This document shows positions 3,320 to 55,231 of a DNA stretch of 64,000 nt, in pieces. The notes beneath the pieces are model-generated. The model saw only the letters and a program-made list of their open reading frames with translations, did no database searches and was not told the origin of the DNA. Source of the stretch: Pseudomonadota bacterium. Its GTDB lineage: Bacteria; Myxococcota_A; UBA9042. The translations under genes were made by a program, and so were the position numbers. Within the stretch, counting starts at the first letter, position 1, and the number at the start of each line of letters is the position of its first letter. Where the stretch lies: NCBI GenBank assembly GCA_005792545.1, contig SXRM01000386.1, forward strand, positions 934 to 64,933, given 5' to 3'.

Positions 3320-3450
3320 CCAGAGCCTTGGCCGCGCGGGGGAGCGTGCGGCAGTCGCTTGGGGTTGGGCGGGCAGTCGCAGGCCAAAGGGCCTGCCGGG
3401 CGCGGCAATTGTGCGTCACATACGGCCGGCGGCGCAATGCCGGCGCCCCG

Positions 3451-4524: not shown

Positions 4525-4542
4525 GCACTCGGGCTGGTGCCG

Positions 4543-7155: not shown

Positions 7156-7594
7156 AACCGCCGGCGCCGCGCACCGAGGATTGCAATTGGTCCGTCAGCG
7201 CAAACGTGGCCCGCTGGACAGGCGCTAGCACTAGCTGGGCAATGCGATCACCGCGGCGCACAGTCGCGGGTTCGGCGCCGAGGTTGACCAGCAACACCAT
7301 CACCTCACCGCGGTAGTCGGCGTCGATGGTGCCCGGGGCGTTGAGCACCGTGAGCCCTTGGTTCCAAGCGAGGCCCGAGCGCGGCCGCACTTGCACTTCA
7401 AAACCACTGGGGATGTGCAAGCGCAGGCCCGTAGGCACGCGGGCACGGCCGAGCGGGGGCATGATCAGCGGTTCTTCTAGCGCGGCGTAGACGTCGGCCC
7501 CTGCGGCGTCGGCCGTCGCGTAGGCGGGTAGCGGCAGGTCGCGGTCGCGGTCGGCATCGACACGCTGGACGGCAATGGGCGGGTGGTCTGGCAC
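7136..7594 (-). CDS. dut: dUTP diphosphatase (dUTPase)
   Basis: Conserved dUTPase motifs: [50 protein letters not shown]. It overlaps the downstream gene start (7155) by 20 nt. Confidence 0.9.
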
Positions 7595-8230
7595 GGCGAT
7601 CCCGGCGCCCGGCAGCGGCGCGGGCCAACATTAGGCGGCAAAGGCCGCGGGTGCAATGGCTCGGTTTGCGGACGCGCCGCTGCCGAAAACCCCTGCGGCA
7701 GTCCGCGGACTCGGCCAGCGATGCAGCGCGCCGGTGAAGTTTCAGCTATCGAAGTGGACGGCAAAGCCCGCGTGCAGTGCGATATGAACCGGTGGCCTGC
7801 TCGAATCTATGACAGCGAGCGGGTTTTGGCCGCCCGGCTGTGCCGGGCTTCGCGTGGGACCGAAGGCCACCGCGACGTTCGAGAAGTCTGCAAGCTGACT
7901 CTGCTGCAGGAACTTGGGTGCATCACTGATAAGCGCTAGAAAGCTCTGTCTATCAGCCCAGCAGGGGCCTCTTGACCATCGCGGGGGAAGGCAGTCCCAG
8001 GCCCAGTGCGTCCACCGGGACGGCTGCGGACGCTGTGCAGCGAAGTTAGAGACCTGTCCCGGGACTGGTGGGCCTCGAGATCCGATCACACTCGTCGGCG
8101 GGCTGCAGCTTGACAGCGCGGCTGACCGCGCCAAATATCCACGGCGGAAGCGCAGCCCCTGCCCTGCCGCGTCGTCGCCCGTCCCTTGTAGCGCCCTGAA
8201 TAACGCTCCGGGCGCCGTCAGAGTCAGCCC

Positions 8231-9760: not shown

Positions 9761-9765
9761 CCTCG

Positions 9766-37462: not shown

Positions 37463-40207
37463 TCAGTTCGGCTGCGCAGCGAGTTCTGCTTCGGCGTCTT
37501 TGAGCATCTGCTTGAACTTGCCGTTGGCCGGATCGCGGTCGACTGCTTTGCGCAAATACAGCACCTTGAGCTTGGCTGTCGTCGCCTTCTGCGCGAGCAC
37601 GGCAAACCGGGCCGCTTCCTTTTGAGCGTCGTTGGCCTCAGCGGCCGCCGGCGGTGCTGGCGGTTTCTCGGCCTTCTCGACCTTGGGCGGCTTGGCCGCT
37701 TCCTTCTTGGCGGCAGCTTCCTCTTTCTTCTTGCGCGCCTCGTCGGCTTTGCGCGCTTTTTCCGACTCGGCGGCCTTCTTGCGCTCTTCATCTGCTTTGC
37801 GGCGCTCTTCGTCAGCCTTCTTGGCGGCAGCCTCTTCTTTCTTCTTGCGCTGCTCGTCGGCCTTGCTGACCTCTGCCTCCGCTTTCTTCTTGGCGGCCTC
37901 GGCCTTGGTGGCTTGCTCCTCTTGCTTCTTGCGGTCCGCCTCCGCTTGCTTGGCCGCCTTGTCATCGGCCTTCTTGCGCTCGGCTTCGGCCTTTTCCAAT
38001 TCTGCCGCGGCCTGCTTGGCAGCCGCCTCGTCGGCAGCCTTCTTCTTGGCTTCGGCCTCCGCGGCGGCTTTGTTGTCGGCCTCGGCCTTGGCAGCCGCAG
38101 CCTTGTTGTCGGCCTCCGTCTTGGCAGCGGCGGTGGCCGCACCCGCAGCGGCATCGACTTGGGCTTGCTCGACCTGCTTTTGCAGGGCCGCCGCCTGGGC
38201 GTCGCCTGGCAGTAGCACTTGCGCCGCCTTGGCCTTTTCCAGCGCTTGGTCGAGCGTGCCGGCGCGCAGCAGCGCCTGACCCTCTTCGACCAGCTTGGCG
38301 GCCTGCGCGGACGGCGGCTCGGTGACCTCAGCGGCAACCTCCGGCGCCGCAGCGACGGCGTCGACAGCGGGCTCGGGGTTGGGCGCTGCGATGTCCGCGG
38401 CCGGGGCGGGCGCCGGCTCTGGAACTGGTGCGGGCGTCGGCGCAGGTGCGGTCGCTGGTGGTGCGGCGGCCTCACTGCCCTCTGGCGGAACGGGTGGCGG
38501 CTCTGGCGGAGCGTTGACTTTGATGTAGACGCCAACCGCCAACATGGCCACGGCGAATGCCGCGAGGGCGCCAAGCAGCAGCTTGTTGACCTTTTGCGGC
38601 GGCGGCACGGGCGGGCCCTGCTCGTGCAAGTCTTTGCCCGCCTCGTGCTTGTCGTTGTGCGAAAAAAACGCCGACTCGTGCATCGCCTCGACGCGGATGC
38701 GATCGGTGGTCTTGACCGTGCGGCCGGTGCCAGCCGCCGCCGGGCTGGCGGCAGGGGCGGGCGCTGCAGTCACCGTCACGGCTTTGGCCTGCGGCGCAGG
38801 GCTGACGGCAGCACTGGCGGCCGCCGGAACCTTGGCGGGTTCGGCTGGCTTGGCCACGTCCGCTGGGCTACGTTCGACCTTGGGTGCCGGCGAGGCGATC
38901 GGGGTCGGCGCCGACTTGCCCGCGATGGGCTGTGGGCCCCCGCGGTCGCGATCGCGCCGACTCTTCTTGCCCTTCTTGCCGCGACGGTTGGGGTCGGTGG
39001 CCACGCCAGCCGCCGAAGCCGGTTCGTCGTCGTCCTCGCCCTCGTCGTCGTCGTCAGCCGCTGCTGCACTGTCAGCCGGCGCTGGCGGAGCCGCCACCGG
39101 AGCCGCCTCTGCCTTGATCGCCGTTGGCACGGCTGTGACGTCCGGCTTGGCCGCTGCCGGTTCCGGTGCCGGCGCTGGCGCTGGCGCTGGCGCTGCGGCT
39201 TCCGGTGCAGCAACCGGTTCGGCGACTTGCTGTGGCTGGGCAGGCGCCGCAACGGGCGCAGGTTCAACTGCGACCTTGACGACAACAGTGGGCGCGGGCT
39301 CCGGTTCCGGCGCCGCGATGGCGCCGCCCAAAGCGCCGGCACGTTGGGGCACGGTCGCATCGGCGCCGCTCGGCAGAGGGCCCCAGGTTGTTGCTGCAGC
39401 TTGCAGCGTCTGCTGCCATGCGGCGGCAGTCGGACGTTTGGCCGGATCCTTGTCGAGTGCCTCGGTCAGTGCAGCCTGCAGGTCCTTGACGCCCTTGAGT
39501 GCAGGTTTGACCAGGTCGAGCCGCAGTGGCTTCTCGGCAGCCTGGCGCTTGATGACGGACAGCGGCTGCGGGCCGTGGAAAGGCGGCTTGCCAGCCGCCA
39601 GCGACCACACCGTCGTCGCCGCGCAATAGACGTCAGACGCTGGCGACAGGGCGCCACCTTTGCAGGCTTCGGCTGCCAGGTACTCAGGGGCGCCGAAAAA
39701 CTCTTCGGCAGCCGAGCCCGGCGCCACCGCCGGCAGCAAGCGCCACCAACCATAGCCAAAGGTCCGGATTTTTCCACCTGCCGCGCCGCCTTGCAGCCAC
39801 AGCCGATGCGGCCCGAGATCGCCGATCCACACGTCGGCACGCGAAGCAGCGGCGCAGGCCCCCGCCATCGCCAGCGCCGCATCGACCAGGTGCGGCATTT
39901 CGAGCTTGTCGCGGCGGCGCAGCGACTCTTCGGCCAGGCACCCGTCGGTTGCTTCGATCGCGATCCAGGCGCCCTGGTCGTCCCTGCCACTGCAGTACGC
40001 GACCAGCGCCTGCGGGCAGTCCGCCAGCTTGCGGTTGTCCGCTAGCACAGCCGCCAGCGTCGCGTCGTCCGCACGGGCTGCCGCAGACAGCCGCAGCACC
40101 AGCGCCGGCGCCGCGAGTCGGTCGTCCGTCGCGCGCACCAGCGTGCCGAGCTTGGTGGTTTCCAGCGTTTCGTGGGCGGTGAAGCGCTGGCCGATTTTTT
40201 CACTCAT
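37463..40207 (-). CDS. Membrane-anchored protein-kinase-like (probable pseudokinase) domain protein with long Ala/Lys/Glu-rich TolA-like coiled-coil region and C-terminal TPR-like segment
   Basis: N-terminal kinase-like fold with APE (GAPEYLAAE) but no VAIK Lys, HLVD instead of HRD, and DLG instead of DFG. One TM helix (LLLGALAAFAVAMLAVGVYI). Then ~250 aa of AEAKKKAADEAAAKQ... low complexity, with ~100-nt DNA-level repeats at ~37700-37900. Confidence 0.75.
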   Translation of the reverse strand: MSEKIGQRFTAHETLETTKLGTLVRATDDRLAAPALVLRLSAAARADDATLAAVLADNRKLADCPQALVAYCSGRDDQGAWIAIEATDGCLAEESLRRRDKLEMPHLVDAALAMAGACAAASRADVWIGDLGPHRLWLQGGAAGGKIRTFGYGWWRLLPAVAPGSAAEEFFGAPEYLAAEACKGGALSPASDVYCAATTVWSLAAGKPPFHGPQPLSVIKRQAAEKPLRLDLVKPALKGVKDLQAALTEALDKDPAKRPTAAAWQQTLQAAATTWGPLPSGADATVPQRAGALGGAIAAPEPEPAPTVVVKVAVEPAPVAAPAQPQQVAEPVAAPEAAAPAPAPAPAPEPAAAKPDVTAVPTAIKAEAAPVAAPPAPADSAAAADDDDEGEDDDEPASAAGVATDPNRRGKKGKKSRRDRDRGGPQPIAGKSAPTPIASPAPKVERSPADVAKPAEPAKVPAAASAAVSPAPQAKAVTVTAAPAPAASPAAAGTGRTVKTTDRIRVEAMHESAFFSHNDKHEAGKDLHEQGPPVPPPQKVNKLLLGALAAFAVAMLAVGVYIKVNAPPEPPPVPPEGSEAAAPPATAPAPTPAPVPEPAPAPAADIAAPNPEPAVDAVAAAPEVAAEVTEPPSAQAAKLVEEGQALLRAGTLDQALEKAKAAQVLLPGDAQAAALQKQVEQAQVDAAAGAATAAAKTEADNKAAAAKAEADNKAAAEAEAKKKAADEAAAKQAAAELEKAEAERKKADDKAAKQAEADRKKQEEQATKAEAAKKKAEAEVSKADEQRKKKEEAAAKKADEERRKADEERKKAAESEKARKADEARKKKEEAAAKKEAAKPPKVEKAEKPPAPPAAAEANDAQKEAARFAVLAQKATTAKLKVLYLRKAVDRDPANGKFKQMLKDAEAELAAQPN

Positions 40208-43054: not shown

Positions 43055-44152
43055 CTAGAAGCCTTTGGCCATGACCGCCGGCATGCCGCGCTCAATCTCG
43101 CGGACGCTGTTGGTCAACACCGCCAGACAGTGTCGATCGTAGGCCTCGATGACGGTGGCGATGCCGATCTGCTCGTCAGGATAGTCTTTGAGATTAGGTA
43201 CTTGACCGCGCCGCAGGCCGTCGCCGCGCCACATGATCTCAAAGCGATTGCCTTTCTCGACCCCGTCGTCTGCGCCCTTGTCGATGTAGACGTAATGGTA
43301 TTGACCGGCAGCGGTCGTCTCGTGGTGGAAATCGATGATGGTGGCCACCAATTCCACCTTGTTGGGCATCGCTCGCGTCAGCACCAGCGGCTCGAACACG
43401 TTGGTCACCAGGTCGCCGCGGCTGATTTCGCTGTAGCTGCGGGTCACCAGCACGCTCACCAGCGGGCGGACCGTGCGCAGAACCTTGCCTTCGCCTAGGA
43501 AGTTGATCTTGTAGCCGACGATCTTGTTGGTCAGCGGATGGACGACTTCGCGCTCGACCCGGTACACGGTATAGCGATCGCCGTCGCGCACGCACGGCCC
43601 CACGAACGCGTCCGGGTCTTTGTCCTTGCCGCTCTCGTCGGAGCACCGGCGCATCGTGAAGCGCACATAGGCCTCGTCCAACTGGCCGAGCATGTTGCGC
43701 TCTTCGCGGCTGGACTCGATGCTGCCCGACTCGCGGTAGTCGCGCGAGCTGATGTAGCCGACCCGGCGGACCAGCTCGACCTGCGGCCGCTTCGGCGCTG
43801 AAAACCGCGACGTCGCGTGGGTGATGGCCTTGGACGCGGCGGCCGCGGCCGGCGCCGAGCGGCGCGACAGGTATAGGACATCGCCAGGGTAGATCTGGTG
43901 CGGGTTGGTAATCTGCGGGTTGTAGCTCCACAGACTGGGCCAGTACCAAGGGTCGTCGTACAACTGTTCCGCGATCGACCACAGCGTGTCGCCCTGCTCG
44001 ACCACGTAGATGCGCTCGCCCGATTTCGCCGATTCCTGTACCGCGATCGCCGGGCCCTGTGCGTCAGGCAGCCATTGAGCGGCGGCGGGCGCACCATGGC
44101 ACAGCCAGGCGGCCCCAACCGCGGCGCAGACCCACTGTGCAGCGGCCTTCAT
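43055..44152 (-). CDS. LysM domain-containing secreted protein
   Basis: Signal peptide is present. The LysM is YVVEQGDTLWSIAEQLYDDPWYWPSLWSYNPQITNPHQIYPGDVLYL. Confidence 0.75.
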   Translation of the reverse strand: MKAAAQWVCAAVGAAWLCHGAPAAAQWLPDAQGPAIAVQESAKSGERIYVVEQGDTLWSIAEQLYDDPWYWPSLWSYNPQITNPHQIYPGDVLYLSRRSAPAAAAASKAITHATSRFSAPKRPQVELVRRVGYISSRDYRESGSIESSREERNMLGQLDEAYVRFTMRRCSDESGKDKDPDAFVGPCVRDGDRYTVYRVEREVVHPLTNKIVGYKINFLGEGKVLRTVRPLVSVLVTRSYSEISRGDLVTNVFEPLVLTRAMPNKVELVATIIDFHHETTAAGQYHYVYIDKGADDGVEKGNRFEIMWRGDGLRRGQVPNLKDYPDEQIGIATVIEAYDRHCLAVLTNSVREIERGMPAVMAKGF

Positions 44153-44958
44153 AGCTCACCCTTGCTGTTCTTGCGCTGCAGGTCGTCCACGGCCCGTCGC
44201 GCGGCCGGCGTGCCGGGGTATTGCCGCGACAGTTGCTTTAGGACCTCGCCAGCGCCGGGATCGTCGCCCATCTTCTCGTAGCTTTTGGCCAGTTTGTACA
44301 TGGCGTCCGGCACCTTGTTGCCGCGCGGGTAGTCTTTGGCGACCCGCACGAACGACTGCGCCGCTTTGAGCCACTGCGACTGGGCGTACCAGCTCTCGCC
44401 GATCCAGTACATGGCGTTGTCGGCCAGGTCATGGTCCGGGTGCGCGAGCAGCATTTTTTCGAACAGGGACCGCGCCGCGGTGACCTGCTCGGCGTCCAGC
44501 AGGTTCTTGGCCTGCGTGTACAGGGCCACCGCCGGGTCCGCCTTGGGTTTGTCGTTGTCCAGCTGCGGCGGCAAGTCGCTCGACGGCCCGCTCGGCGCCG
44601 GTGTGGCCGGAGGTTCCGCGGCGACCACTTCGATGGGTCCCTCAGTGGCTGGCGCCGCGACTTTGACGGTTGGCAGCTTGGGAATCCACCCCGATTCGCG
44701 GCGGGCGCGGTCGACGCGGGCCGAGTCGGCGCGCTCCTCAACCATTACCAGTCGCGACTTGAGCTCGTCATACTGCACGCGCGCGGCCGCCTGGCTGCGC
44801 TTGAGCTCGTCGAGTTCGTCGCGCAGCGCGCTCACCTCGGACTCGACCTGCTGCGTGCGCGCCCCGGTGCATGCTGCCAGCGACGCCGCGCAGCAAGCGA
44901 CGCAAGCCAGCCACCTGGCGCTTCGCTTCGGGTTGGGCGGGCGGTGCGGCATAGGCAT
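44149..44958 (-). CDS. cpoB: Tol-Pal system protein YbgF/CpoB-like (coiled coil + TPR)
   Basis: Signal/lipobox, an N-terminal coiled coil (ELDELKRSQAAARVQYDELKSRLVMVEER), and a C-terminal TPR triad (AMYWIGESWYAQSQWLKAAQSF...AMYKLAKSYEKMGD). Confidence 0.75.
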   Translation of the reverse strand: MPMPHRPPNPKRSARWLACVACCAASLAACTGARTQQVESEVSALRDELDELKRSQAAARVQYDELKSRLVMVEERADSARVDRARRESGWIPKLPTVKVAAPATEGPIEVVAAEPPATPAPSGPSSDLPPQLDNDKPKADPAVALYTQAKNLLDAEQVTAARSLFEKMLLAHPDHDLADNAMYWIGESWYAQSQWLKAAQSFVRVAKDYPRGNKVPDAMYKLAKSYEKMGDDPGAGEVLKQLSRQYPGTPAARRAVDDLQRKNSKGEL

Positions 44959-45006: not shown

Positions 45007-45423
45007 TCAGCGGGTGTCAACATTTGCCCGGGCTTGGCGCAGGTTGCGCAGGCCCGCGCGCAAAGTCGGCGCCACCTTCGCCCAGGCCCGACCCGCGGCC
45101 CGCACCGCCGCGCCAATCGGGCCACTGCGAGGCATTGGCACCACCACCGCGCCCCAGCGCACGGCGCACAGTCGGCCGACGATGGCTGCGCGTGACACCG
45201 GCGGATCGCAGCGATCGCGGGTGTCGCCGCGCAGAATCACACGATCGCCGTCGATGATTTCCACGCGGTGCAAGACGATCGCTGGGGCAGGGCCACTAAC
45301 GACGCCCACGATGTCGCCAACTTGTAGGACATCGACCGCGTCAAGTGCGATCTCGGCTGGGGCGGCCAGTGGCCACATCGACCGGCCGGCAACTGGGTGC
45401 CAGACGCGGGCGCTTGCGGTCAC
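45007..45423 (-). CDS. S24/S26-type (LexA/signal-peptidase-like) serine peptidase domain protein
   Basis: The GTG at 45423 overlaps the rSAM TGA stop. AGRSMWP matches the GDSMxP nucleophile motif. GDIVGVV...AIVLHRVEIIDGDRVILRGD follows the S24 beta-fold pattern with His in place of the usual Lys. The ORF-track start at 45873 is inside the rSAM gene. Confidence 0.55.
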   Translation of the reverse strand: MTASARVWHPVAGRSMWPLAAPAEIALDAVDVLQVGDIVGVVSGPAPAIVLHRVEIIDGDRVILRGDTRDRCDPPVSRAAIVGRLCAVRWGAVVVPMPRSGPIGAAVRAAGRAWAKVAPTLRAGLRNLRQARANVDTR

Positions 45424-46622
45424 GGTTTGCTCGGTGCAGCGAGAACCCGGGCGCCCTGACCCTTGCGAGGTCGGTAGATGGGGAAGACGAATCGCTCCGG
45501 TCGCGGCGGCCGTTCGGACCCCGCGGGGACGCTGGCCCACTGCTCCGGAGCCCACGTCGGGCCGTGGGCGGCTTCGTAGCCGAGCATGCGCAAGCGGGTG
45601 CGGGTATGAAAGTGGCCTGGGGGCTTCCGATAGTCGCCCGTGTTCTTGAACGCTTCGCCTGGGCAATAGAAGCAGGCTCCGCTTCCGCCACAGCTGTGGC
45701 AGGCCGTGCGCTCGCGGTTGGTCCAGTCGCGCAGGGCCAGGCGTGCTGGTGAACCAGACCAGATATCGGCCAGCGCCTGCTGCCGCAGGTTGCCAAGCTC
45801 CATTGGAAACACGACACACGGCCAGACGCCACCGTCGGGGGCGATGTACACGAGGCGCCGGCCGGCACCACACGGACCCTGCGACAGCCGGTCTTTGACC
45901 TGAGCGGTCGGTGGCGGCACCGTTCGGGTCAGTGCGATGAGTTGCTCGGCTCGAATCCGCCGGTCCACCGCCAGGTTCAAGCTGTCGAGACCCTCATTGC
46001 CGGCATTATCGCGTGAAATATCCAAGCCGAACCTAACCGTGCAGCCCAGAGCCACAAAACGGTCGAAAATCGCCGGAATTTCTTCGACAGTTTGGTCCTG
46101 GACGACCACACTCGCTTGCACAGGGACGCCAACAGCCCGCAGGCACTGGATGCCGGTCAGCGTCCTTGCCAGTGATCCAGGATGCCGGGTAAAGGCGTCG
46201 TGAATCTCCGGCCGCAACGAGTAGACGCTGACGTCGACCCGCGTGACCATTTGCTCGGCGTACCGCGCCGCGACGGCGGCATCGACGTTGCCCGCGTGGG
46301 TCTTGATGCGATTCGCAAAGCCCTTTGCCGTTGCGTAGGCCAGCAGCTCCTCAAAGTCGGCGCGCTGGCTGACGTCGCCACCTGACCACGTCAGCAGCAG
46401 CGTCCCCATCGCCGCCAACTGGTCCAACACCGCGCGCCACTCTGCCCCTGTCATTTCGGGATAAGTCGTTCGGTTGTCCAAGTAGCAGTGCTGGCAGTCC
46501 AGGTCGCACCGATAGGTCAGGTTGATGTGCGCCGAAACCGGCACATCCGCTTGCGCGTAGAGCGCCAATGCGGCATCGACCGAGGCCACTTCCGTAGCGG
46601 CCGGACTCGCGGCGGCGATCAT
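45420..46622 (-). CDS. Radical SAM / SPASM-domain peptide-modifying enzyme (maturase)
   Basis: CxxxCxxC radical SAM motif NLTYRCDLDCQHCY. C-terminal SPASM cysteines GPCGAGRR...CVVFP...CHSCGGSGACFYCPGE. The ATG at 46622 overlaps the HprK-like gene stop (ATGA). The ORF-track start at 46928 lies inside the upstream gene. Confidence 0.85.
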   Translation of the reverse strand: MIAAASPAATEVASVDAALALYAQADVPVSAHINLTYRCDLDCQHCYLDNRTTYPEMTGAEWRAVLDQLAAMGTLLLTWSGGDVSQRADFEELLAYATAKGFANRIKTHAGNVDAAVAARYAEQMVTRVDVSVYSLRPEIHDAFTRHPGSLARTLTGIQCLRAVGVPVQASVVVQDQTVEEIPAIFDRFVALGCTVRFGLDISRDNAGNEGLDSLNLAVDRRIRAEQLIALTRTVPPPTAQVKDRLSQGPCGAGRRLVYIAPDGGVWPCVVFPMELGNLRQQALADIWSGSPARLALRDWTNRERTACHSCGGSGACFYCPGEAFKNTGDYRKPPGHFHTRTRLRMLGYEAAHGPTWAPEQWASVPAGSERPPRPERFVFPIYRPRKGQGARVLAAPSKP

Positions 46623-47491
46623 GGCTGGACCGCAGCGAGGCCGCCGCAGGGCAACTGCGGGACCTGTTGCAAGTCTGGCAAAAGCAGCGAAGCCAAGGCC
46701 ACTTCGACCACCTCGACCGGGTCGCTCAGGCAATGTGTCAACACCCCAATCGGCACCGACGCCGTAAGCGCTGCGATGCGCTCCGCCGTTGCAGCTGCTG
46801 CGGCACCTCCGGCGTACCAGCAATGCGGCGCGATTTCCCCAACACATTGAGGCCAATTCGCCCGGTCCACATGCGTCCGGGACCGATCGGCAGCCAGTCG
46901 GACCATGGCGGCAAGGGGCGTCGCCCACGGCAAGTGCTCACCGCGAATTCGTATGGCGTTTTGCCGCCACGCCTGCCACTTGGACGGGTCAGGAGCGGAG
47001 GGCACCAGGTACACCAAGTCGTCGTGGAGTGCGCGATCAACGAACCGGCTTGCCAACGTCGACTTGCCCGCCCCGGAGACACCGCACACCACAAACACAC
47101 CCGACGACAGCGACAGCGCCGCACCGTGAACAAGCAGACCGCCGGCTTGTAACACGAGCGCCTGCAGCATCCACAATAGATTGCTACCGAACTCCCTTAG
47201 ACCACCGACCAAGTCAATCGGTTGCGACAAGGTCAGCGTGCCGGTGCCCTCGCGATGATCCCATTGGCCCCGCACTGACCCTATTCGCCAGCTGCAGTGG
47301 TGCGCGTCAAACTCGTCAAATTCAAGCGCGTCACCTGCCGCAAATTCCGTCGTCGTCACCTCAAGTTCCAGATCAAGGCGCTCGCCGGGTTCCGGCAGGC
47401 ACCACGGTCGCTGCAGGCCGCTCGTATTGACCGGCAGCCTCAGGCCAACGCGGAGCGGACCCAGGCGTACGGTCCGCTGCAACTGATCCAT
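46619..47491 (-). CDS. HPr kinase/phosphorylase-related P-loop kinase (HprK-related kinase, RiPP-cassette type)
   Basis: Walker A GVFVVCGVSGAGKSTLASRFV in a ~290-aa protein. It sits immediately upstream of and translationally coupled to the rSAM/SPASM gene. Confidence 0.7.
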   Translation of the reverse strand: MDQLQRTVRLGPLRVGLRLPVNTSGLQRPWCLPEPGERLDLELEVTTTEFAAGDALEFDEFDAHHCSWRIGSVRGQWDHREGTGTLTLSQPIDLVGGLREFGSNLLWMLQALVLQAGGLLVHGAALSLSSGVFVVCGVSGAGKSTLASRFVDRALHDDLVYLVPSAPDPSKWQAWRQNAIRIRGEHLPWATPLAAMVRLAADRSRTHVDRANWPQCVGEIAPHCWYAGGAAAAATAERIAALTASVPIGVLTHCLSDPVEVVEVALASLLLPDLQQVPQLPCGGLAAVQP

Positions 47492-47494
47492 GCA

Positions 47495-47659
47495 CTATTC
47501 CTGCAACGGGGCTTCTGGCGGACAGCCCGAAGCAAGCAAGGCGTTCAGCGCGGACTCCGCCGTCTGCACCGTCGGCGCGCTGTAGGGCTTGCGAGCGTGT
47601 TGGCGACCATCATCCGCCAGCGGATCCTCCGATGTCTGCCTGAAATTGATGTCGTCCAT
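47495..47659 (-). CDS. Small ORF (54 aa) preceded by a strong Shine-Dalgarno sequence; candidate RiPP precursor/leader peptide: MDDINFRQTSEDPLADDGRQHARKPYSAPTVQTAESALNALLASGCPPEAPLQE
   Basis: AAGGAGAA lies 7 nt upstream of the ATG at 47659. Codon usage is atypically low in GC3 (ATC AAT TTC AGG CAG ACA) for this genome. There is a single Cys near the C-terminus. It sits 4 nt upstream of the HprK-like gene and 38 nt downstream of the giant lipoprotein. Confidence 0.45.
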   Translation of the reverse strand: MDDINFRQTSEDPLADDGRQHARKPYSAPTVQTAESALNALLASGCPPEAPLQE

Positions 47660-47720
47660 GCGAGGTTCTCCTTGTTCACCCATTGCAGACCGCGGGTCGC
47701 ACCATTCGCGGCGGTCAGCC

Positions 47721-50700
47721 TCAATACACTACGACCAGGCTTCCGTCCAGCGAACCGATCACCAGATCGACCTGACCGTCACCATTGAAGTCGCCAACCG
47801 GAGCGTAGGCCGTGCCGCCCCAACCCGTATTGGTAGAAGTGCCCCAATTCAGCTTGCCCTTGTTGAACGGATCCTCGATCCAAAAGTCCTCGTACTGCAA
47901 GCTAACTTCAGCGGGAATGGCCGACGCAGGCCGGACCATACCCAGGCGAATGACCACCCGATTGGTGCCGCCTGCGCCAGTGAAAGTCGGGATGCCGTGC
48001 ACGACGTCGATGAACGGGCCACTTGACCCCTGACGGTCGGCAAAATTTCCAGCTTGCATTGGCACCCAGTGCCACTGCCGCACCACGTAGCCGCCCTCAG
48101 CCGAGTAGGTGTCCGTGGTGCCTGTCAGCAATGCACCCGGCGTCAGCGTAAAGTTGGTTCCCAACTTGCTCGCAAGGTACGAGCCGCGCACCCAGTAGAG
48201 CCCGCCGATGCCCGCCGACGACTGGTGCTGGAGCGCAAGGTCCGGAATGCCGTCGTTATCCATCTTGATGACGGACTGGTAGGAGCCGATTTGGTTGGAG
48301 CCCGTCGCTGAGGTGCCGCGTATGGCCACAGCGGTCGCGTCGCCCGTTTGATTGCCGGCGTAGCTCAGCAGGATTTGCACGTCTCCGCTGAGCGGCCGGC
48401 CCTTGACGACGTACGCCGACTGGCCGCCCGAGTGCAGCGATGTGAACAAGTCGTCGTACTGGGTCGGTCCGCTGTCGGCTAGCATGTTTCCGACGCCGAG
48501 CATTGAATTGCCCCAGGGCGACGCGATGTTCTGATCTACCAACCGAATGGTCGCCATGTTGTTGGCGGCCCGGTCAGCATCGGCGTCAATGCTGATGGTC
48601 TTGGGGCTTGCCGAATTCCAGGCGGCATTGCCCGGCAGGACCAGCACCCGATCGTAGGCGTACTTGGAAGTGGGCTTGGTGGTAATGGCGATGTCCGCCA
48701 ACGGCTTGCCATTCGCCGCGTCGCCATTGAAGTTGCCGATGATCTGGGCCTTCCAGACCCCGTAAGGGAAACCGCCCGCGATGTCCTTGACGGTCACGGC
48801 CGGCGTGTCCGTCATGGCCGCGCCTTTCTTGCCCAGGTACACCACGACCGAGCGCAAGACACTGGTGCCGGTGCCGACCGCAGCCACGAGATCATCGACG
48901 CCATCGCCGTTGACGTCGCCGCCCGACGAAACCGGCGCGCCCAGACCACCGGGATTGGTCAAGCAAACGTGGCTCGGATAGGCGCTCGACACCGACAGGT
49001 CGATGTCCGTCACGGTTGCCTGATTGCGACCGTACACGATGCACAGCGGTTCCGCAGCGCCGCCGCCAAGCGCAACGTCTCCCAACCCGTCACCGTTCAA
49101 ATCGCCAACTTTTTGCACCCGGGACCGCATGTCCGCTTTGTTGAACGTACCGCCCAAATTGATCTTTGCGTACCGCAGGGCCAGGCCTGTCGTCGACACG
49201 CTATTCGACACCGGCGAGAGGTTGCCGGCTGCGTCTTGGGCCTGAACCGCAAAGTGCCACGACGACGCCCCGTTGTCGGTCAGCGGAACGAATTTGCAGG
49301 GGTCTGGATTGGCATAGCTGTTTGGCCGAGGATCGGGGCCTTCCACAAAGATCTGTTGTGCGGTGCCTGCGGCGGCAGGTGAGGGAATGGTCGCTGCCGG
49401 CAGCTTGGCGGCGTCGCAGGCGGCGTCAAAGTCGGCTTGCTTGTCCATCGCCACCTTGCTGTAGCGCACCAGGTACTTGTCCGCTTTGCCTGTCGCGCCA
49501 TTGTCGCCAACTGCTGTTAGAGACAGCTTCGCCATTGGCCGCCGCGCGTTGAGATCCGCCGCCTGCAAAGCGGCAAGCACCGGCGCGGCAGGCGCGACCC
49601 AGTCTACTGTGACCACGATCTGTCCGGTCCCGACATTGCCTGCGGCGTCGGTCACCGTTGCAGTGACGGTGTTGCCCGCATCCTCCTGCAGCGTAGCGAA
49701 CTGCAAGTCGATGGTCGCGGGGTTGGCAGACAACACCACTGGAAGCGCATTTGGCTGCGAGACCGCTAGCGCCACAGTCGTTGCGCCCACAGTCCGTTCC
49801 AGCTTGGTCAGCTTGCCGCCACCGAGACCTGTGTCCGTCGCCTGAACCTGCAGGTGGAGTTGATGGCCGGCTTGACCATTGAGGTCCTTCAGTTTTCCTA
49901 CCAGGACCGGACCCGGCCCGGCGCTGGTCGGCACGCCAAGCACCGTACCCGCAACAAAGGCCACTTTGGGCGCGCTGAGATCGGCCTTGAGCGCGAGCGG
50001 TCCAGACGTGCCCTTGACGGCGCCACTTCCATCAAGCGCGATCGCCTCCAGGGTCGTGTTGTCGCCGTCGGTCACCGTCAGCGCAAAGGTAGCCGCTGTA
50101 CCCGTCGGCGGCTTCTTGCCGACCTCCGTGCTGCCCTTCTTAAGTTGGATGTTGGCAATCGTTCCGCAGGGTCCAAGCAAGTCCGCGGTCACGGTGGCAC
50201 TCAGACTCGCGCAGTCCTTGTTGGCCGTTGCGCAACTGGCGTTGTTGAAGGTTCCACCCGCAGGCAGGCCTTTGAGCGACACCAAGCACCCAGAGAGTTG
50301 AACTTTAAACCCGCGCGAAGCCGTCGCGGTGTTGCCATTGGCGTCCGTCACGGTTGCTCGCACCGAGTAATTGGGCGAAGCGCCAAATGGTATGGTGATG
50401 TGCGACCCGGGGCCGCTGGAGATTGTGGACGCCACGGCGGTTGCCGCTGCGACCTGCTTGAACGCGGTGCAATTGGCGAAAGCGGCGTCGCATCCCTCAC
50501 CGATTTCGATCTTGTAGCTTGCGGTGTCGCCGACGGAAACGGCCCACGCGACCTGATAGCCACCTGCCGACGATTCTGCGTCCTGGGTGTCGCCAAACGT
50601 CGCGCCCTGTGCTGGCGTCGTAAATGACACCGTCGGCGGAATGGTATCGACAGTCACTTTGGCGGGATTGGTCGCAACCGTGGCCACATTGCCACACAGG

Positions 50701-53700
50701 TCCCGAACATCGGCCTGCAGCGAGTGGTCGCCGTCGACTAACGTCTTGTACTTGGCATCGGTGAACGTCGTCGTTCCCGCCGTCAGTTTTTCCGTCCCCT
50801 TGGTCGTGGCGCCATCTTTGAGCGTGACGTCCTGTCCTTCTGCGTCGGCAGACTGCGACACGACAACCACGTCAAGGGACTGCCCAACGATGACCTTGCT
50901 GCTCGACGGCTGCGCGAACGCGCCGGTTGGCTTGAGCGTGTCGACGACAAACGGGCCGAGATTCAGCACCGTACTGGTGTTGCCCACGAGATCGGCGGCA
51001 GTCACTGCAACGGTCAAGGTTCCTTCGGTGCTTAAGGCAAGTACGGCTGAGGCCGACTTGCCTGCTGTTGCGGCGGTGGTGGCAAAGGCCCCTCCGCCCA
51101 CCACCGTAATCTGGCCCTCTTCGCTGCCGGTCACTGAGAAAGCAAAGGTGCCACCCGGCGCGCCCAGGTCATCTTTGGACTGGCTCAGGACGTTGAGGCA
51201 AGCCGCCTTGGCGCCCGGCGCCGCCGGCTCCGTGGCAGCTGCAATCGTCGGCGCCACCGTATCGACGAACACGGTGCGTTGCTTGACGCTCAAAGCCGTT
51301 GCGCCAGTAGACGAGGTGACCGGAATGTCAGGTGGAAAGCTGCCTTCAACGACGAGCACAAACTTGCCATCGCCCAGCGTCGCCGCGTTGAACTGCATGG
51401 TCAGCGACACCGGCAAGGTGCCCGCGTCGATCTGCTTGTAGCCGCTTGTCGCACAGTCTGGACCGCTCGCGCCCGAACCTGATGCACACAGCACCATCTT
51501 GCTGCCTGCCGGAAAGCCCGTCGTCGACGCTGTAACGGTGCGGTTGGCTGCCTTGCCCCAAGGCACAGCGCAGGTCCCACTGATGCACAAGTTGGCGCCG
51601 CAATTCGCGTGCGATGTGCAGGGCCCTTCCGAGACATTACTGGGACCGGTGATGCCAATCGATGCCTGCTTGGACTGCACCTGAATTGCGTAGGTCACCG
51701 TCGCGACGTTGCCGGCAAGATCCGTCACCGTAAACACGAGCTTGGTGTCGACCGAATCCTTCAGATCGACTTTGCCGAAGTCCGCCTTGCCGGTGTCGTT
51801 GGTTACTGCCCCAATCTTGGCTTGCAGCGTTGACTTCGCCCCCAACTGGTCCAGATCAAGCGTCACAGTTTGGCCGGCTTGGGCACCCTTGACCGCAACC
51901 GTCAGCACGATCTGCATACCGTCAGTGAACTTGTCGATGTCTTCCACGGCCACGAGCGTGAACTGAAGGTCAGCCTTGGCCGGGGATGCCAATGGCAGAA
52001 ACTTGGGCGCAACGCGGTCCACCGTCACGGTAATTTCTTGCGACAATGCCACTTGCAGTGCCGCGTCGGTCGCCTTGGCCGCCAATTTACAAGCGCTTTG
52101 GTCTTTGAGCGCGACCGCTGTGAAAGTCGCCTTGCCACCCAAAACACTCGCAGTCGCCTGTTTGGGCGGGTCTACGCCACAAGTCACGGTCAGCTCCGCC
52201 CCCGCGCCATCCTCCACATCGGTCACGGTGGCAACGACGTCGGTTACACAGTCTTGAGCGCCAGCCAGGCATTGTGCGCTGGTCGCGTTGAACACCGCCT
52301 TGTCCAGCGGCGCCGTGATGGCCACGGACGGCTTGGTCGACTTGAATGTCACGGTGACTTCGGGCGAAAAGCCCTTGTCTTTGTCGCCTGCGCCCACGGC
52401 TTTGGCCGCGAATAGCACCTTGGTTATCGGCTTGCCAGACAAGCCCGTCACCGTGAACTCGTAGATCCCAGGCGCAGTTTCGGTCACCGTAACGGCCTGG
52501 GTCGCGCCATCGACCAACACTTCGGTGGTCGCGCCCTTGACCGGTGCGCCGCCCACATTGGTGACCTGTGCGACGAATTTGAAGACGTCTGCCACCGTCG
52601 AGATCGCGGTGCTGGGCGGCGAGGTGAACTGGACGATCGGCGCCGCCGAAACCAGCGTCCCAACCCACGGCGCGGCGACCGTCTGATTGCCGACCTCGTC
52701 GTCGGCGGTGACTTGCACGGTGTTCAGACCCGGCTGAAGCGTGACGGCGGCGAACACCACTTTCTTGTCTGCCGCCGTGGTCAACTTGCAGTCCTTTTGG
52801 CCGGACGACGACTGCAGGCAAACCTTGACCGCATCCGCGATGTCGACCTGGACATCGACCTGATAACCCGGGGTTGCCGGCGCTGAGTCCGGATCGTCGA
52901 GCGTGGTCAGCGTGGCTTTGCTCGGCAGCGAGATCGTTGCCGTTGGGCCGGTCGTGTCTAGCGTCAACGTGCGGGTGGCGTCGCTGCACAGGCTCGCGGC
53001 CGCGTGGTTGCCAAAACCGTCGATGGCGTCCAGGTTGAAGGTGTACTCACCGTCCAACAACTTCTGGCCGGCCGGTTGCAAGTTGACGGAATTGGCGACG
53101 CCGCTGTCGGTGGCGGTGCCGACGGCGATCGGATCGAAGACGACCCCAGACGCCGACTTGAGCGAAAGCGTGACTGCGGCGCCTTGCAGGTTGGCGGCCG
53201 ACGCCACCAGAGCCAGCGTCGTCGAATTGGTCTTTGCTTTGTCGGCAGGCGATTGGACCTTAATGCACGGCGCAGGCAAAGCCACCACAAACGGCACCTC
53301 CGCCGAGACGGCGGCGTTCGGCGCGTTGTCGGTGGCGATACAAGCCACCTTGTTGCCGTAAACCTGGGCGTCGATGGCGACCGGCACCAGCAATGTTGCG
53401 CCAACCTTATAGTTCGCGGTGCCGACCGGTTGCTGGCCAAGCGGCGCGCCCAGCACGTTCTTGCGGCAGTACACCGCGATGTCGCTGTCAGCCGTGCCGC
53501 CGTTGATCGCGACCGTGACCTTGGCCTCATACACCAGCGCCGTCGCCGCGTTGCCGTCGTCCTTGGCGAGCCAGGTGCCATTGACCACCGGATCGGTGAT
53601 GGCGAGGCCTGCGACGTTGGCGAACACGGTATAGACGGCAGACGCCGAACCTGACAGGCCGCAAGAGTTCTTGGCGGTGATCTTTAGCGCGTAGGCCTTG

Positions 53701-54812
53701 GACTCCGGGAACGACCACGGCACCGCAAACGAACCGTCGGCTTGCACAGTGGTCGTGACGGTGGCGGTGCCTTCCATGGCCACTTCGACGGCGCCAATAT
53801 CCGCCGGAGTGAGCGTGGTGGCCTTGCCGCTGATGAGTACCTGAACGCCTGCAGCCACTGGATCGGTGTCATCGGTCAGCGTCAGTTGGCCCGGCAGGGG
53901 TGCGGTAATGGTCACCACCGGCGATTCGGTCGTGAGCGTCACCACCTGCACCGGCGACTCGCCCTCGGGACGGTTGCCGCCCGCGTCTTTGACTACCGCG
54001 GTCACCTTCGCGGATGCGCCAGTCAACCCTTTGGATTTGCTAGACAGCTTGACCTGCACTGGCACCGATTGACTGCCGGCCAGCGCGACTTCGGCGGACG
54101 TGACGCTGTTGCCCTCCGCGTCGGTTACCTTGAGGTAAGCGTGCGTGCAGTCGGCCGTGTCGGTCTTGACAGTGAAGGTGTACTGAAAGCCATCGGTTTG
54201 CGGATCGGCGTCGTCGGTCAAACAGGCCGGCGCAGCGACCAGCGCAGCCGAACAGGCATTGCCGCACTGGACCTGAACTGTTTTGCTGGCCTGGCCGACG
54301 GCGCCCGGCGCCACGGTCACGACGACGCCGAGCGTGGATGGCGCTGCCGCACACGGCACAGTGACTTTGTCGAAGCGCGCTGCGCCCTTGCTGATGACGC
54401 TCGGCTGGCCGACCGCCTGACCACCAACCGACAGCACGACCGACGCGCCGTCCGGTGCGTTGGTGGTCTGCACCACCACGTTGACCTGAATGCCGATCTC
54501 TGGAGCGAGGTCGTTCTTGGTGTCCAGGTTGGCCGTGTTGACCGTGCCCTCGAGCGCGTTACCGGTCTTGGTCTCGAGATAGAAGTTGACCGTCGGCGCC
54601 ACGGGTGGCACGTCCTGGTTGCCGACCTCGCCTCCGTCTACCTCTGCGCCGATGTCCGGACAGGCGCCGTCGCACTTCTGACCGACTACCGCAACGTCGT
54701 CGGTGCAGGCGTTGACGATCAAGGTGGCCGCGAGAACGGTCAGGCGAAGCGGACGCCACCATGCCAACACGGTAGACGCCAGGGGATTGCTCGGGGTGCC
54801 CAAACTGACCAT
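47721..54812 (-). CDS. Giant (2364 aa) extracellular lipoprotein with >15 tandem Ig-like/cadherin-like (Big) domains, a Cys-rich insert, and C-terminal FG-GAP/integrin-alpha-like beta-propeller repeats
   Basis: The start Met at 54812 gives MVSLGTPSNPLASTVLAWWRPLRLTVLAATLIVNAC, a lipobox. There are long runs of T/V/A-rich Ig-like repeats. FG-GAP calcium-binding loops include DLNGDGLGDVALGG, DVNGDGVDDLV, DNDGIPDLAL and DFNGDGQVDLVIGS. It ends ...SLVVVY. Confidence 0.85.
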   Translation of the reverse strand: MVSLGTPSNPLASTVLAWWRPLRLTVLAATLIVNACTDDVAVVGQKCDGACPDIGAEVDGGEVGNQDVPPVAPTVNFYLETKTGNALEGTVNTANLDTKNDLAPEIGIQVNVVVQTTNAPDGASVVLSVGGQAVGQPSVISKGAARFDKVTVPCAAAPSTLGVVVTVAPGAVGQASKTVQVQCGNACSAALVAAPACLTDDADPQTDGFQYTFTVKTDTADCTHAYLKVTDAEGNSVTSAEVALAGSQSVPVQVKLSSKSKGLTGASAKVTAVVKDAGGNRPEGESPVQVVTLTTESPVVTITAPLPGQLTLTDDTDPVAAGVQVLISGKATTLTPADIGAVEVAMEGTATVTTTVQADGSFAVPWSFPESKAYALKITAKNSCGLSGSASAVYTVFANVAGLAITDPVVNGTWLAKDDGNAATALVYEAKVTVAINGGTADSDIAVYCRKNVLGAPLGQQPVGTANYKVGATLLVPVAIDAQVYGNKVACIATDNAPNAAVSAEVPFVVALPAPCIKVQSPADKAKTNSTTLALVASAANLQGAAVTLSLKSASGVVFDPIAVGTATDSGVANSVNLQPAGQKLLDGEYTFNLDAIDGFGNHAAASLCSDATRTLTLDTTGPTATISLPSKATLTTLDDPDSAPATPGYQVDVQVDIADAVKVCLQSSSGQKDCKLTTAADKKVVFAAVTLQPGLNTVQVTADDEVGNQTVAAPWVGTLVSAAPIVQFTSPPSTAISTVADVFKFVAQVTNVGGAPVKGATTEVLVDGATQAVTVTETAPGIYEFTVTGLSGKPITKVLFAAKAVGAGDKDKGFSPEVTVTFKSTKPSVAITAPLDKAVFNATSAQCLAGAQDCVTDVVATVTDVEDGAGAELTVTCGVDPPKQATASVLGGKATFTAVALKDQSACKLAAKATDAALQVALSQEITVTVDRVAPKFLPLASPAKADLQFTLVAVEDIDKFTDGMQIVLTVAVKGAQAGQTVTLDLDQLGAKSTLQAKIGAVTNDTGKADFGKVDLKDSVDTKLVFTVTDLAGNVATVTYAIQVQSKQASIGITGPSNVSEGPCTSHANCGANLCISGTCAVPWGKAANRTVTASTTGFPAGSKMVLCASGSGASGPDCATSGYKQIDAGTLPVSLTMQFNAATLGDGKFVLVVEGSFPPDIPVTSSTGATALSVKQRTVFVDTVAPTIAAATEPAAPGAKAACLNVLSQSKDDLGAPGGTFAFSVTGSEEGQITVVGGGAFATTAATAGKSASAVLALSTEGTLTVAVTAADLVGNTSTVLNLGPFVVDTLKPTGAFAQPSSSKVIVGQSLDVVVVSQSADAEGQDVTLKDGATTKGTEKLTAGTTTFTDAKYKTLVDGDHSLQADVRDLCGNVATVATNPAKVTVDTIPPTVSFTTPAQGATFGDTQDAESSAGGYQVAWAVSVGDTASYKIEIGEGCDAAFANCTAFKQVAAATAVASTISSGPGSHITIPFGASPNYSVRATVTDANGNTATASRGFKVQLSGCLVSLKGLPAGGTFNNASCATANKDCASLSATVTADLLGPCGTIANIQLKKGSTEVGKKPPTGTAATFALTVTDGDNTTLEAIALDGSGAVKGTSGPLALKADLSAPKVAFVAGTVLGVPTSAGPGPVLVGKLKDLNGQAGHQLHLQVQATDTGLGGGKLTKLERTVGATTVALAVSQPNALPVVLSANPATIDLQFATLQEDAGNTVTATVTDAAGNVGTGQIVVTVDWVAPAAPVLAALQAADLNARRPMAKLSLTAVGDNGATGKADKYLVRYSKVAMDKQADFDAACDAAKLPAATIPSPAAAGTAQQIFVEGPDPRPNSYANPDPCKFVPLTDNGASSWHFAVQAQDAAGNLSPVSNSVSTTGLALRYAKINLGGTFNKADMRSRVQKVGDLNGDGLGDVALGGGAAEPLCIVYGRNQATVTDIDLSVSSAYPSHVCLTNPGGLGAPVSSGGDVNGDGVDDLVAAVGTGTSVLRSVVVYLGKKGAAMTDTPAVTVKDIAGGFPYGVWKAQIIGNFNGDAANGKPLADIAITTKPTSKYAYDRVLVLPGNAAWNSASPKTISIDADADRAANNMATIRLVDQNIASPWGNSMLGVGNMLADSGPTQYDDLFTSLHSGGQSAYVVKGRPLSGDVQILLSYAGNQTGDATAVAIRGTSATGSNQIGSYQSVIKMDNDGIPDLALQHQSSAGIGGLYWVRGSYLASKLGTNFTLTPGALLTGTTDTYSAEGGYVVRQWHWVPMQAGNFADRQGSSGPFIDVVHGIPTFTGAGGTNRVVIRLGMVRPASAIPAEVSLQYEDFWIEDPFNKGKLNWGTSTNTGWGGTAYAPVGDFNGDGQVDLVIGSLDGSLVVVY

Positions 54813-54862
54813 TGTCCTATCCTCCGGACCGAAAATTGACTTGAAGATCAAGCGGCTCGACA

Positions 54863-55231
54863 TCATAGCCGCCCGCCCGTGGGTTCGTTGGCGGTGGCGA
54901 TTTGCTTGGCCAGCAGCGTGTCGACAAACGTCGTCACATCCAGGCAGGCGGTCGCCGCATCGACCTGGTAGTCGCGCACGAGCAACTCTGCTAGTTCGCT
55001 GACCGTGGCTGGCGCCGCTGCGAGTCGCTTGATGAGGTCCACTGCCGTCGGGGCCGCGAGGCGGTGAAACGCCCGATCGCCGGTGATGACGAAGACCTCG
55101 CCACCGACGTTTCGCCACGCTGCGCGCGGGTGGATGCGGACGACGGCCGCCGCGGCCGCGGTGTTTGTCGGAGCGCCGGCGCCCAAGACATCGCGATCGG
55201 GATGGACCTGATCAGGTTGCGGCATCTGCAT
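54863..55231 (-). CDS. PqqD-family protein (RiPP recognition element-like)
   Basis: GEVFVITGDRAFHRLAAPTAVDLIKRLAAAPATVSELAELLVRDYQVDAATACLDVTTFVDTLLAKQIA matches the PqqD/RRE winged-helix pattern. The start is uncertain (ATGs at 55231 and 55225, or an upstream GTG). Confidence 0.6.
   Translation of the reverse strand: MQMPQPDQVHPDRDVLGAGAPTNTAAAAAVVRIHPRAAWRNVGGEVFVITGDRAFHRLAAPTAVDLIKRLAAAPATVSELAELLVRDYQVDAATACLDVTTFVDTLLAKQIATANEPTGGRL

Follow-up and report, generated by a model that had tools for sequence, protein, structure and literature searches.

A candidate precursor peptide gene in a conserved cassette with PqqD, ScmC-like and radical SAM/SPASM genes

Introduction

The SynChlorMet cassette, which comprises ScmC, ScmE, ScmF and a PqqD homologue, has been defined bioinformatically in TIGRFAMs/NCBIfam, and to our knowledge no precursor peptide has been identified for it. 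Here we set beside it a locus from a 64,000-nucleotide stretch of contig SXRM01000386.1 (the window), in which a small open reading frame (ORF) of 54 codons stands directly before genes for a kinase-like P-loop protein and a radical S-adenosylmethionine (rSAM) enzyme with a SPASM domain. We conclude that this ORF is a genuine gene, probably translated, and that it most likely encodes the precursor (substrate) peptide of a six-gene cassette made up of a PqqD-family protein, a giant FG-GAP lipoprotein, the peptide, a ScmC/HprK-like P-loop protein, the rSAM/SPASM enzyme and an S26-like peptidase. The peptide would then belong to the RiPPs, peptides made by ribosomes and modified after translation. 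Among lasso peptides of this kind, the leader carries a YxxPxL motif at −17 to −12 (PMC10368454), and HPr-kinase homologues acting on leader-bearing lasso precursors are known (PMC8498205).

Searches of full-text literature returned no paper with 'SynChlorMet' and none joining 'HPr kinase' and 'SPASM'. A compendium of rSAM RiPPs mentions neither a kinase nor a signal peptidase, and literature searches found no description of a giant FG-GAP lipoprotein in such a cassette. If our reading is right, the small ORF provides a concrete, testable substrate for an uncharacterised cassette of rSAM/SPASM, PqqD and ScmC (HprK-like) proteins.

Results

A small ORF occupies the same slot at every syntenic locus recovered

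Searched by homology against 5.8 billion proteins, the 54-aa peptide retrieved the identical sequence only, and neither Pfam nor NCBIfam scans, run on the peptide and also on its orthologues, gave anything relevant or matched a known precursor family. As the peptide found only itself, related loci were sought through the neighbouring genes, using homologues of the P-loop protein. This approach gave five other distinct loci, belonging to four lineages, for comparison: L003, L008/L009 (together with a 333-kb contig), L010, L011 and L012/L013. As far as each contig extends, the gene order was the same in every locus: giant protein, a small ORF of 59–68 aa, ScmC-like protein, rSAM/SPASM enzyme, a protein of ~125–142 aa, a CpoB-like tetratricopeptide repeat protein and a LysM protein. 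In all three loci with contigs long enough to show it, the giant gene is preceded by the PqqD gene, which L003 and the 333-kb contig have at the same position as the window. An earlier, sequence-only reading of this DNA had proposed that the lack of a small ORF at this position in syntenic loci would mark the ORF as a chance one. We ran this check, and all recovered syntenic loci carry a small ORF in the same slot, with AGGAG 6–8 nt upstream of each ATG; in the 333-kb contig a 64-aa ORF has been called there. A scan of genome contigs with the kinase alignment added only one distant Anaerolineales locus (L005), in a different context, and a scan of metagenome contigs with a kinase pattern gave only two short contigs, the pattern being too generic.

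A constrained block precedes a variable, cysteine-bearing tail

In BLASTP searches the window peptide matched those of L003 (E = 9e-6) and L008 (E = 4e-7 over residues 1–46), with alignments that span the leader up to the Cys residue. The pattern (Y/W)xxPxVx(S/T)-x4-LxA(L/V)(L/V)x(S/T)GC is common to four lineages. Aligned by hand, the block and the tail that follows it read HARKPYSAPTVQTAESALNALLASGC then PPEAPLQE in the window, GERLPYVKPRVLSTNGQLQAVLGTGC then AVVCTPTNTGDPPCGGTSGSDPLC in L003, GKRLPYAKPRVLSSSGQLQAVLGTGC then AVVCTPSNIGDPPCGGIDASDPLC in L010, GERLPYCKPQVHSTAGQLQAVLGSGC then PTVCTPSNTGDPACFGTSESDPLCAP in L011, SRRTYTPPAVHSQRGVLQALVQSGC then TEGSCPDTVACPTAGATDPC in L008, and RQTWQTPEVDTFAARDVYAVLTTSSC then GGSGQAAIEGGGGDPGDCTAA in L012. 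When the motif was run as a regular expression over six-frame translations, it matched exactly once in the window and exactly once in each locus except L012/L013, and the scan found no second precursor copies.

Region-wise Nei–Gojobori estimates of the ratio of non-synonymous to synonymous substitution rates (dN/dS) differed strongly along the peptide. For the L003/L010 pair, dN/dS was 1.09 over residues 1–18, 0.10 in the motif block (residues 19–42) and 0.46 in the C-terminal part; for the L003/L011 pair it was 0.18 in the motif block. The constrained block thus covers 21–24 residues, between a neutral N-terminus and a variable tail of 9–26 residues that bears the Cys. Ratios of 0.10–0.18 in the motif reflect selection on the encoded amino acids, which argues that the gene family is translated. 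The earlier suggestion that the ORF encodes a leader/core precursor for a SPASM-type enzyme is supported by this leader-like block under purifying selection and by the variable, Cys-bearing C-terminus.

We weighed these data against the possibility of an open frame that arose by chance, or of an upstream ORF with a purely regulatory role, between the giant and kinase-like genes. At this composition (67% GC) about 2.3% of codons are stops, which by our arithmetic gives a 54-codon open frame a chance of ~0.29 per frame, and the 15 kb around the locus hold 139 ORFs of at least 40 aa, many of the ORFs in this region being spurious. By itself, therefore, a 54-codon ORF is not beyond chance, and the return of only the identical sequence from so large a protein set also fits a chance frame. 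What places the ORF beyond chance is its ribosome-binding site, its codon usage in frame and, most of all, its conservation. An AGGAG-preceded small ORF is present at all syntenic loci, the peptides are significantly similar with a motif under strong constraint, codon usage of a coding type is seen in this frame only, and the upstream spacer has no significant or conserved RNA structure. The conservation effectively refutes a chance or purely regulatory frame, which we regard as extremely improbable.

The putative core of the window peptide differs from those of its orthologues

The only Cys that is invariant across the family is C46, and the putative core begins there. It is also the sole Cys of the window peptide, nine residues from the end, in agreement with the sequence-only reading. 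Orthologue cores have 22–26 residues and 2–4 Cys, whereas the window core has 9 residues, one Cys and no hydroxyl residue. In four of the five orthologous cores (L003, L008, L010, L011 and L012) the sequence starts C-x3-4-C and continues with (T)P, while D-P-x-C or D-P-G-D-C closes each of the five. Cleavage before the first Cys would give those four peptides an N-terminal Cys and a second Cys, an arrangement reminiscent of the hook of nickel superoxide dismutase (NiSOD) that is freed by SodX. A conserved C-terminal motif, which had been proposed as something to look for next to similar gene pairs, was therefore found in part: the orthologues share the D-P-x-C endings, but the window peptide does not have them. 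Contigs L001 and L002 are 100% identical and hence uninformative on selection on the short core.

These differences raise the possibility that the family is a true precursor family in which the window copy is truncated or decaying, with a core unable to give the ancestral product. The brevity of CPPEAPLQE, set against orthologous cores with an early CxxxC or CxxxxC in four cases and the shared endings in all, is what such decay would leave, and with only 3 nt between the ORF and the next gene a longer core would not fit. However, the ORF, its ribosome-binding site, the leader block and the in-frame codon usage are all intact, the cassette enzymes are all full-length and without frameshifts, and the single invariant Cys has been kept. 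The L012 core is also very different, which indicates that cores vary by lineage. On balance, we consider it unlikely that the window copy is decaying.

Other claims about the composition of the peptide fared unequally. The N-terminal half is acidic as proposed, albeit mildly (6 D/E versus 4 R/K). The peptide had also been put forward as a Ser/Thr-rich phospho-acceptor for the HprK-like kinase. This does not hold, as its Ser/Thr content is 13%, its putative core has no hydroxyl residue, and the only conserved hydroxyl positions are T33 (Tyr+7) and S44 (Cys−2). The view that the peptide is not itself a PqqD fold stands; the PqqD gene is at 54863–55225.

Translation signals and codon usage of the small ORF

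The coordinates and the 54-aa translation previously reported were correct (Table 1). The frame runs from an ATG at 47659 to a TAG at 47497–47495 on the minus strand, has 54 codons, and is annotated as a gene in two public assemblies. A canonical Shine–Dalgarno sequence stands six bases before the ATG, as claimed. The ORF was also correctly placed just upstream of the kinase and rSAM genes: 3 nt separate its stop codon from the ATG (47491) of the kinase-like gene, and the rSAM/SPASM gene is next. A second ATG lies upstream at 47683 and would give a 62-aa form (the added part being 47660–47683, minus strand). This start lacks a ribosome-binding site, and it is with the start of the 54-aa form that the orthologues align; we rejected it and take the shorter form to be the likely product.

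An RNA element in the 61-nt spacer upstream of the ORF was considered and dropped. The fold of the spacer had a z-score of +0.94, no consensus pairs were found across six loci, there were no Rfam matches, and no terminator-like site was found between the giant gene and the small ORF. L003 (9777–9806) and L010 (5060–5089) share 30 identical nt directly before the ATG of the small ORF, which include a palindrome, GGCGCGCGCGCC, in addition to AGGAG. The small ORFs of these two loci differ at 26 of 66 codons, with dS about 0.39. As the 30 nt are identical and yet no fold is conserved across the loci, they may form a protein-binding site or a translation signal.

Anomalously low GC content at third codon positions (GC3) had been ascribed to the small ORF. 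This was not borne out: its GC3 of 0.745 is on a par with those of its neighbours (kinase-like gene, 0.711; rSAM gene, 0.756; giant gene, 0.767). A local codon-adaptation index, built from ten genes of the window, was 0.632 for the small ORF, compared to 0.559, 0.645 and 0.668 for the same three neighbours, and only 0.35–0.52 for the remaining five frames of the ORF stretch. The list of supposedly rare codons was partly right. Of the codons listed, only AGG and ACA are clearly rare in the window and AAT is moderately under-used (0.44 relative to AAC), whereas ATC (Ile), TTC (Phe) and CAG (Gln) are preferred codons.

The cassette is a long-standing resident of its chromosomal site

GC3 is lower in all the cassette genes (0.71–0.77 across 45007–55225) than in the flanking cpoB, lysM and rseP genes (0.83–0.86; 43055–44958 and 56307–58187), so that it is a trait of the cassette and not of the small ORF. 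Weak codon selection is the more likely cause of this, rather than recent transfer. Recent acquisition of the small ORF, which its codons had been taken to suggest, is contradicted both by its codon usage, which is typical of the cassette, and by its position. The cassette lies upstream of cpoB-lysM at every locus that reaches those genes, the most divergent one included. Between the window and L003, protein identity is 42% for PqqD, 46% for the giant protein, 38% for the peptide, 35% for the ScmC-like protein, 54% for the rSAM enzyme and 47% for the peptidase, compared to 67% for CpoB and 81% for LysM in the flanks. Retention of the same chromosomal place in lineages at 32–54% protein identity argues for old vertical inheritance. 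Judged by these sequence comparisons, the cassette appears to be fast-evolving and long resident and not a recent arrival.

Table 1. Features of the cassette, with coordinates in the window
Feature	Coordinates	Strand	Basis
54-aa small gene, candidate precursor peptide, MDDINFRQTSEDPLADDGRQHARKPYSAPTVQTAESALNALLASGCPPEAPLQE	47495..47659 (including stop codon)	minus	sequence and translation
Shine–Dalgarno sequence, AAGGAGAA	47666..47673	minus	ATG six bases downstream
Conserved leader-like block, Y26–C46, YSAPTVQTAESALNALLASGC	47522..47584	minus	BLASTP, motif scan, dN/dS
Putative core, CPPEAPLQE (C46–E54)	47498..47524	minus	manual comparison of orthologues; boundary inferred
PqqD-family protein, discrete, 120 aa, operon head	54863..55225	minus	Pfam PqqD, 30.3 bits (cut-off 23.4)
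Big_13/FG-GAP protein, 2,363 aa, lipoprotein-like N-terminus	47721..54812	minus	L003 orthologue (2639–9763), 46% identical over 2,329 residues
ScmC-like/HprK-PEPCK-fold P-loop protein, 290 aa	46619..47491	minus	weak TIGR04355 match; PF27840 in orthologues
Radical SAM/SPASM enzyme, 400 aa	45420..46622	minus	Pfam Radical_SAM 67.4 bits and SPASM 46.1 bits, both above cut-off; ATGA overlap with ScmC-like gene
S26-like soluble peptidase candidate (archaeal/ER-type or NiSOD-protease-like), 138 aa	45007..45423	minus	re-derived GTG start overlapping rSAM stop (GTGA)

Proteins encoded with the peptide

All genes of the region are on the minus strand, in the transcription order rseP, tsaB, PqqD, giant protein, small ORF, P-loop protein, rSAM/SPASM enzyme, small protein, cpoB, LysM gene and apbE. 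The three enzyme genes are tightly coupled to the small ORF, by the 3-nt gap and then by the ATGA and GTGA overlaps. At the head of the operon, the discrete PqqD protein is likely, from its sequence, to be a leader-binding RiPP recognition element (RRE). The best NCBIfam matches of the PqqD proteins were lasso-peptide PqqD chaperones, below cut-off. The giant gene lies immediately upstream of the small ORF in L003, L008, L009, L010, L012, L013 and the 333-kb contig, while the L011 contig retains just its 3' end.

The P-loop protein scored 21.8 bits against TIGR04355 (HprK-related kinase B), below the cut-off of 200 bits (TIGR04352/TIGR04355), and its orthologues have precomputed Pfam matches to PF27840 (ScmC). 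In an AlphaFold2 model made with eight sequences, the C-terminal domain had a predicted local distance difference test score (pLDDT) of about 80–94. In a Foldseek search of the PDB this model matched only ATP-dependent phosphoenolpyruvate carboxykinase (PEPCK) and HprK/P structures: the matches at E ≤ 0.001 were all PEPCK and were followed by chains of HprK/P, with target-normalised TM-scores of 0.42–0.55. A profile of 30 family members matched PEPCK over 63 positions, in the segment from the His-Gly to the P-loop. The Walker A sequence is G137-x-S-G-x-G-K-S-T, with His-Gly upstream and D157-D158 downstream; H122, G137, S139, G142, K143, T145 and D157 are invariant in the family and D158 is nearly so. 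We take H122, the Walker A motif and D157-D158 to be the counterparts of the catalytic residues of HprK/P.

The radical SAM match of the rSAM enzyme begins at residue 33, which leaves no room for a fused RRE. Its closest solved homologues are SkfB (2.3e-18) and then PqqE, and no NCBIfam family reached its cut-off.

Public assemblies give the last cassette gene a length of 123 aa, with its start at ATG 45378. Starting instead at GTG 45423 adds 15 residues (45378–45423), including G-R-S-M-W-P. As these residues hold the conserved G-x-S-M-W-P with its putative catalytic Ser, the automated start probably removes the active-site serine. Among four orthologues of the resulting 138-aa protein, G-x-S-M-(W/Y)-P, H-R and R-G-D-T are invariant (S15-M16-x-P18 and H52-R53). 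All four match TIGR02228 weakly (best E = 0.0021; 14.4 bits compared to a cut-off of 51.85) and two match TIGR02754 (6.3e-5), in each case below cut-off. A PDB profile search with the candidate gave no match. We regard the protein as a probable soluble S26-type peptidase.

Relatives of the P-loop protein and another feature of the window

The ScmC-like family as a whole has 9,919 representatives at E ≤ 0.001 (~1,100 at E < 1e-10), of which the clade of the window protein is a small part. Distant ScmC-like proteins without a nearby rSAM gene are found in L004 (2450–3250) and in L005 (5842–6711). The L004 gene comes after genes for a secreted protein of 525 aa and a membrane protein of 153 aa, and ahead of an ECF sigma factor gene. 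These rSAM-free contexts show that the family of ~9,900 members is not confined to rSAM cassettes. Elsewhere in the window, at 37463–40207 on the minus strand, a 914-aa Ser/Thr-kinase-like protein has a very long low-complexity region rich in Ala, Pro, Lys and Glu, which gives rise to many long spurious ORFs there on both strands.

Discussion

The small ORF has several properties of a RiPP precursor gene. It is shorter than about 110 aa, co-directional with the maturase genes and adjacent to them, it encodes a conserved, leader-like segment and a more variable one, and a PqqD-like RRE is encoded in the same cluster. A neutral N-terminus followed by a constrained block and a variable tail with a Cys, together with an RRE-less rSAM/SPASM enzyme, a discrete PqqD protein and a small peptidase, make up the standard RiPP arrangement, and it is this combination that leads us to read the peptide as a precursor.

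What would such a cassette do? For the chemistry, the role of the kinase-like protein, the cleavage site and the leader/core boundary, we infer the following scheme. Residues 1–45 would be the leader, with the (Y/W)xxPxV motif bound by the discrete PqqD protein in the way that lasso B1 proteins bind YxxPxL. PqqD would bring the peptide to the rSAM/SPASM enzyme, itself devoid of an RRE domain. The enzyme would then modify the core at or through the invariant C46, most plausibly with a thioether-type crosslink; its closest solved homologue, SkfB, is a Cys-to-Cα thioether synthase. The ScmC-like protein would use ATP, and may phosphorylate T33 or S44. Finally, the soluble S26-like peptidase would cut off the leader at A43-S44-G45|C46, a site with small residues at −3 and −1.

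Several points weigh against this scheme or against the precursor itself. The enzyme assignments are all below curated family cut-offs, and the single-sequence model of the peptidase candidate (pLDDT 41.9) is too poor for use. The cassette has no exporter or immunity gene. The Tyr of the motif is at −20 relative to the Cys, compared to −17 in lasso leaders, and the conserved block could itself be the part that is modified, rather than a leader. Within its family the window peptide is an outlier, without CxxxC and D-P-x-C, and may be a decayed allele or have a different, simpler product. BLASTP gave no alignment between it and the L012 peptide, the two having in common only position, size, ribosome-binding site and a loose pattern. 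Moreover, the loci represent four or five lineages of related uncultured bacteria, and thus few independent lineages.

Some of these points, and others, would also fit an accessory role, in which the small protein would act as a regulator, serve the ScmC-like ATPase as an adaptor or chaperone, or pair with the giant protein, and the conserved block would be a protein-binding helix. Conservation is in the middle of the protein and not at its end, known precursor families do not match it, nothing in the cassette would export a product, and the giant protein is always adjacent. However, an adaptor would be expected to be conserved over its whole length, whereas here a constrained motif stands between a neutral N-terminus and a variable Cys tail in an otherwise standard RiPP setting, and (Y/W)xxPxV resembles a known RRE-binding motif (PMC10368454). 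We therefore hold a precursor to be the better account of the peptide, and an accessory role to be improbable.

A more specific and speculative idea, to which we attach only a small chance, draws on analogy with other systems. The peptide might be a dedicated partner of the 2,363-aa FG-GAP (β-propeller) lipoprotein, Cys-crosslinked by the rSAM enzyme and trimmed to an N-terminal Cys by a cytoplasmic S26-type protease in the manner of SodX, and might serve the giant protein as a crosslinked small subunit, ligand or metal-binding hook instead of being a free antibiotic-type RiPP. This resembles the logic of QhpC, the γ-subunit of quinohemoprotein amine dehydrogenase. If it were true, ScmC/HprK-like proteins would be peptide kinases or ATP-dependent adaptors in such systems.

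Returning to the peptide as a precursor, a cassette that joins lasso-like recognition, an rSAM crosslinker and an S26-type protease, always beside a giant surface protein, could reveal a new peptide modification or a new use of such a modification. The analysis also shows that small genes can be verified through synteny and region-wise dN/dS rather than through composition.

How does the cassette compare with described systems? With SynChlorMet, the closest of the named systems, it shares a ScmC/HprK-like P-loop protein, a PqqE-like rSAM/SPASM enzyme and a PqqD-family protein. An alignment of the P-loop protein with its 29 closest relatives in a representative library showed that 26 of the 30 weakly match TIGR04249 (ScmC, cut-off 125 bits); the window protein itself gave no match to this model at E ≤ 0.01, and its orthologues scored 20–27 bits. 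SynChlorMet has ScmE and ScmF as its two rSAM/SPASM proteins, with a cut-off of 400 bits for either model, whereas the cassette has one. The ScmE model gave 84.9 bits for the window enzyme and 91–98 bits for its orthologues, and the ScmF model gave 48–67 bits for the orthologues. Beyond SynChlorMet, the cassette has the S26-like peptidase, the giant FG-GAP lipoprotein and an identifiable small peptide gene.

The phosphorylated lasso-peptide clusters (of the paeninodin and Bradymonadales bsf type, with A, B1 = PqqD, B2, C and K = HPr-kinase homologue) share with the cassette a precursor with a YxxPx(L/V) leader, a discrete B1-like PqqD RRE and an HprK-fold gene adjoining the precursor gene. In Pfam and NCBIfam scans and precomputed Pfam lists, neither a lasso cyclase (asparagine-synthetase-like) nor a B2 cysteine protease was present among the cassette genes; an rSAM/SPASM enzyme and an S26-like peptidase stand in their place. 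While the lasso motif lies at −17 to −12, in leaders with Thr (or Ile/Val) at −2, the cassette motif (YSAPTV in the window) is at −20 to −15 from the Cys if the core starts at C46, with Ser/Thr at −2. The cassette peptide has no C-terminal Ser that could be phosphorylated.

Thioether RiPPs, which include sactipeptides (for example sporulation killing factor, made by SkfB) and ranthipeptides, resemble the cassette in having a Cys-containing core and an rSAM/SPASM maturase. SkfB and AlbA have a fused N-terminal RRE; the cassette maturase has none and is accompanied by a discrete PqqD protein, as PqqE is. Against sactipeptide-maturase cut-offs the rSAM enzyme scored 82.9 of 625 bits for StsB, 68.9 of 300 for SkfB and 67 of 850 for AlbA, far below the threshold in each case. 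In contrast to sactipeptides and ranthipeptides, the window peptide has only one Cys, and it matches no precursor family.

The pyrroloquinoline quinone (PQQ) and mycofactocin systems (PqqA/D/E and MftA/B/C) share with the cassette a small peptide, a discrete PqqD-type chaperone and an RRE-less rSAM/SPASM enzyme, and PqqE and MftC are among the best matches. In PqqA and MftA the modified C-terminal residues are strictly conserved, whereas the cassette peptide has a variable C-terminus and is conserved upstream of it, and there are no further pqq or mft genes. Similarly, SodX and archaeal/ER-type signal peptidase I (S26) share with the 138-aa protein the G-x-S-M-x-P nucleophile motif and a His-Arg where S26B has its catalytic His. 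The 138-aa protein is small and soluble like SodX; in contrast to the SodX system, no NiSOD gene is present. Judged by sequence, then, the recognition parts of the cassette appear lasso-like, its maturase resembles those of sactipeptides or PqqE, and its protease resembles SodX; most likely the cassette is an rSAM RiPP-type system that depends on an RRE and has a precursor family not recognised before.

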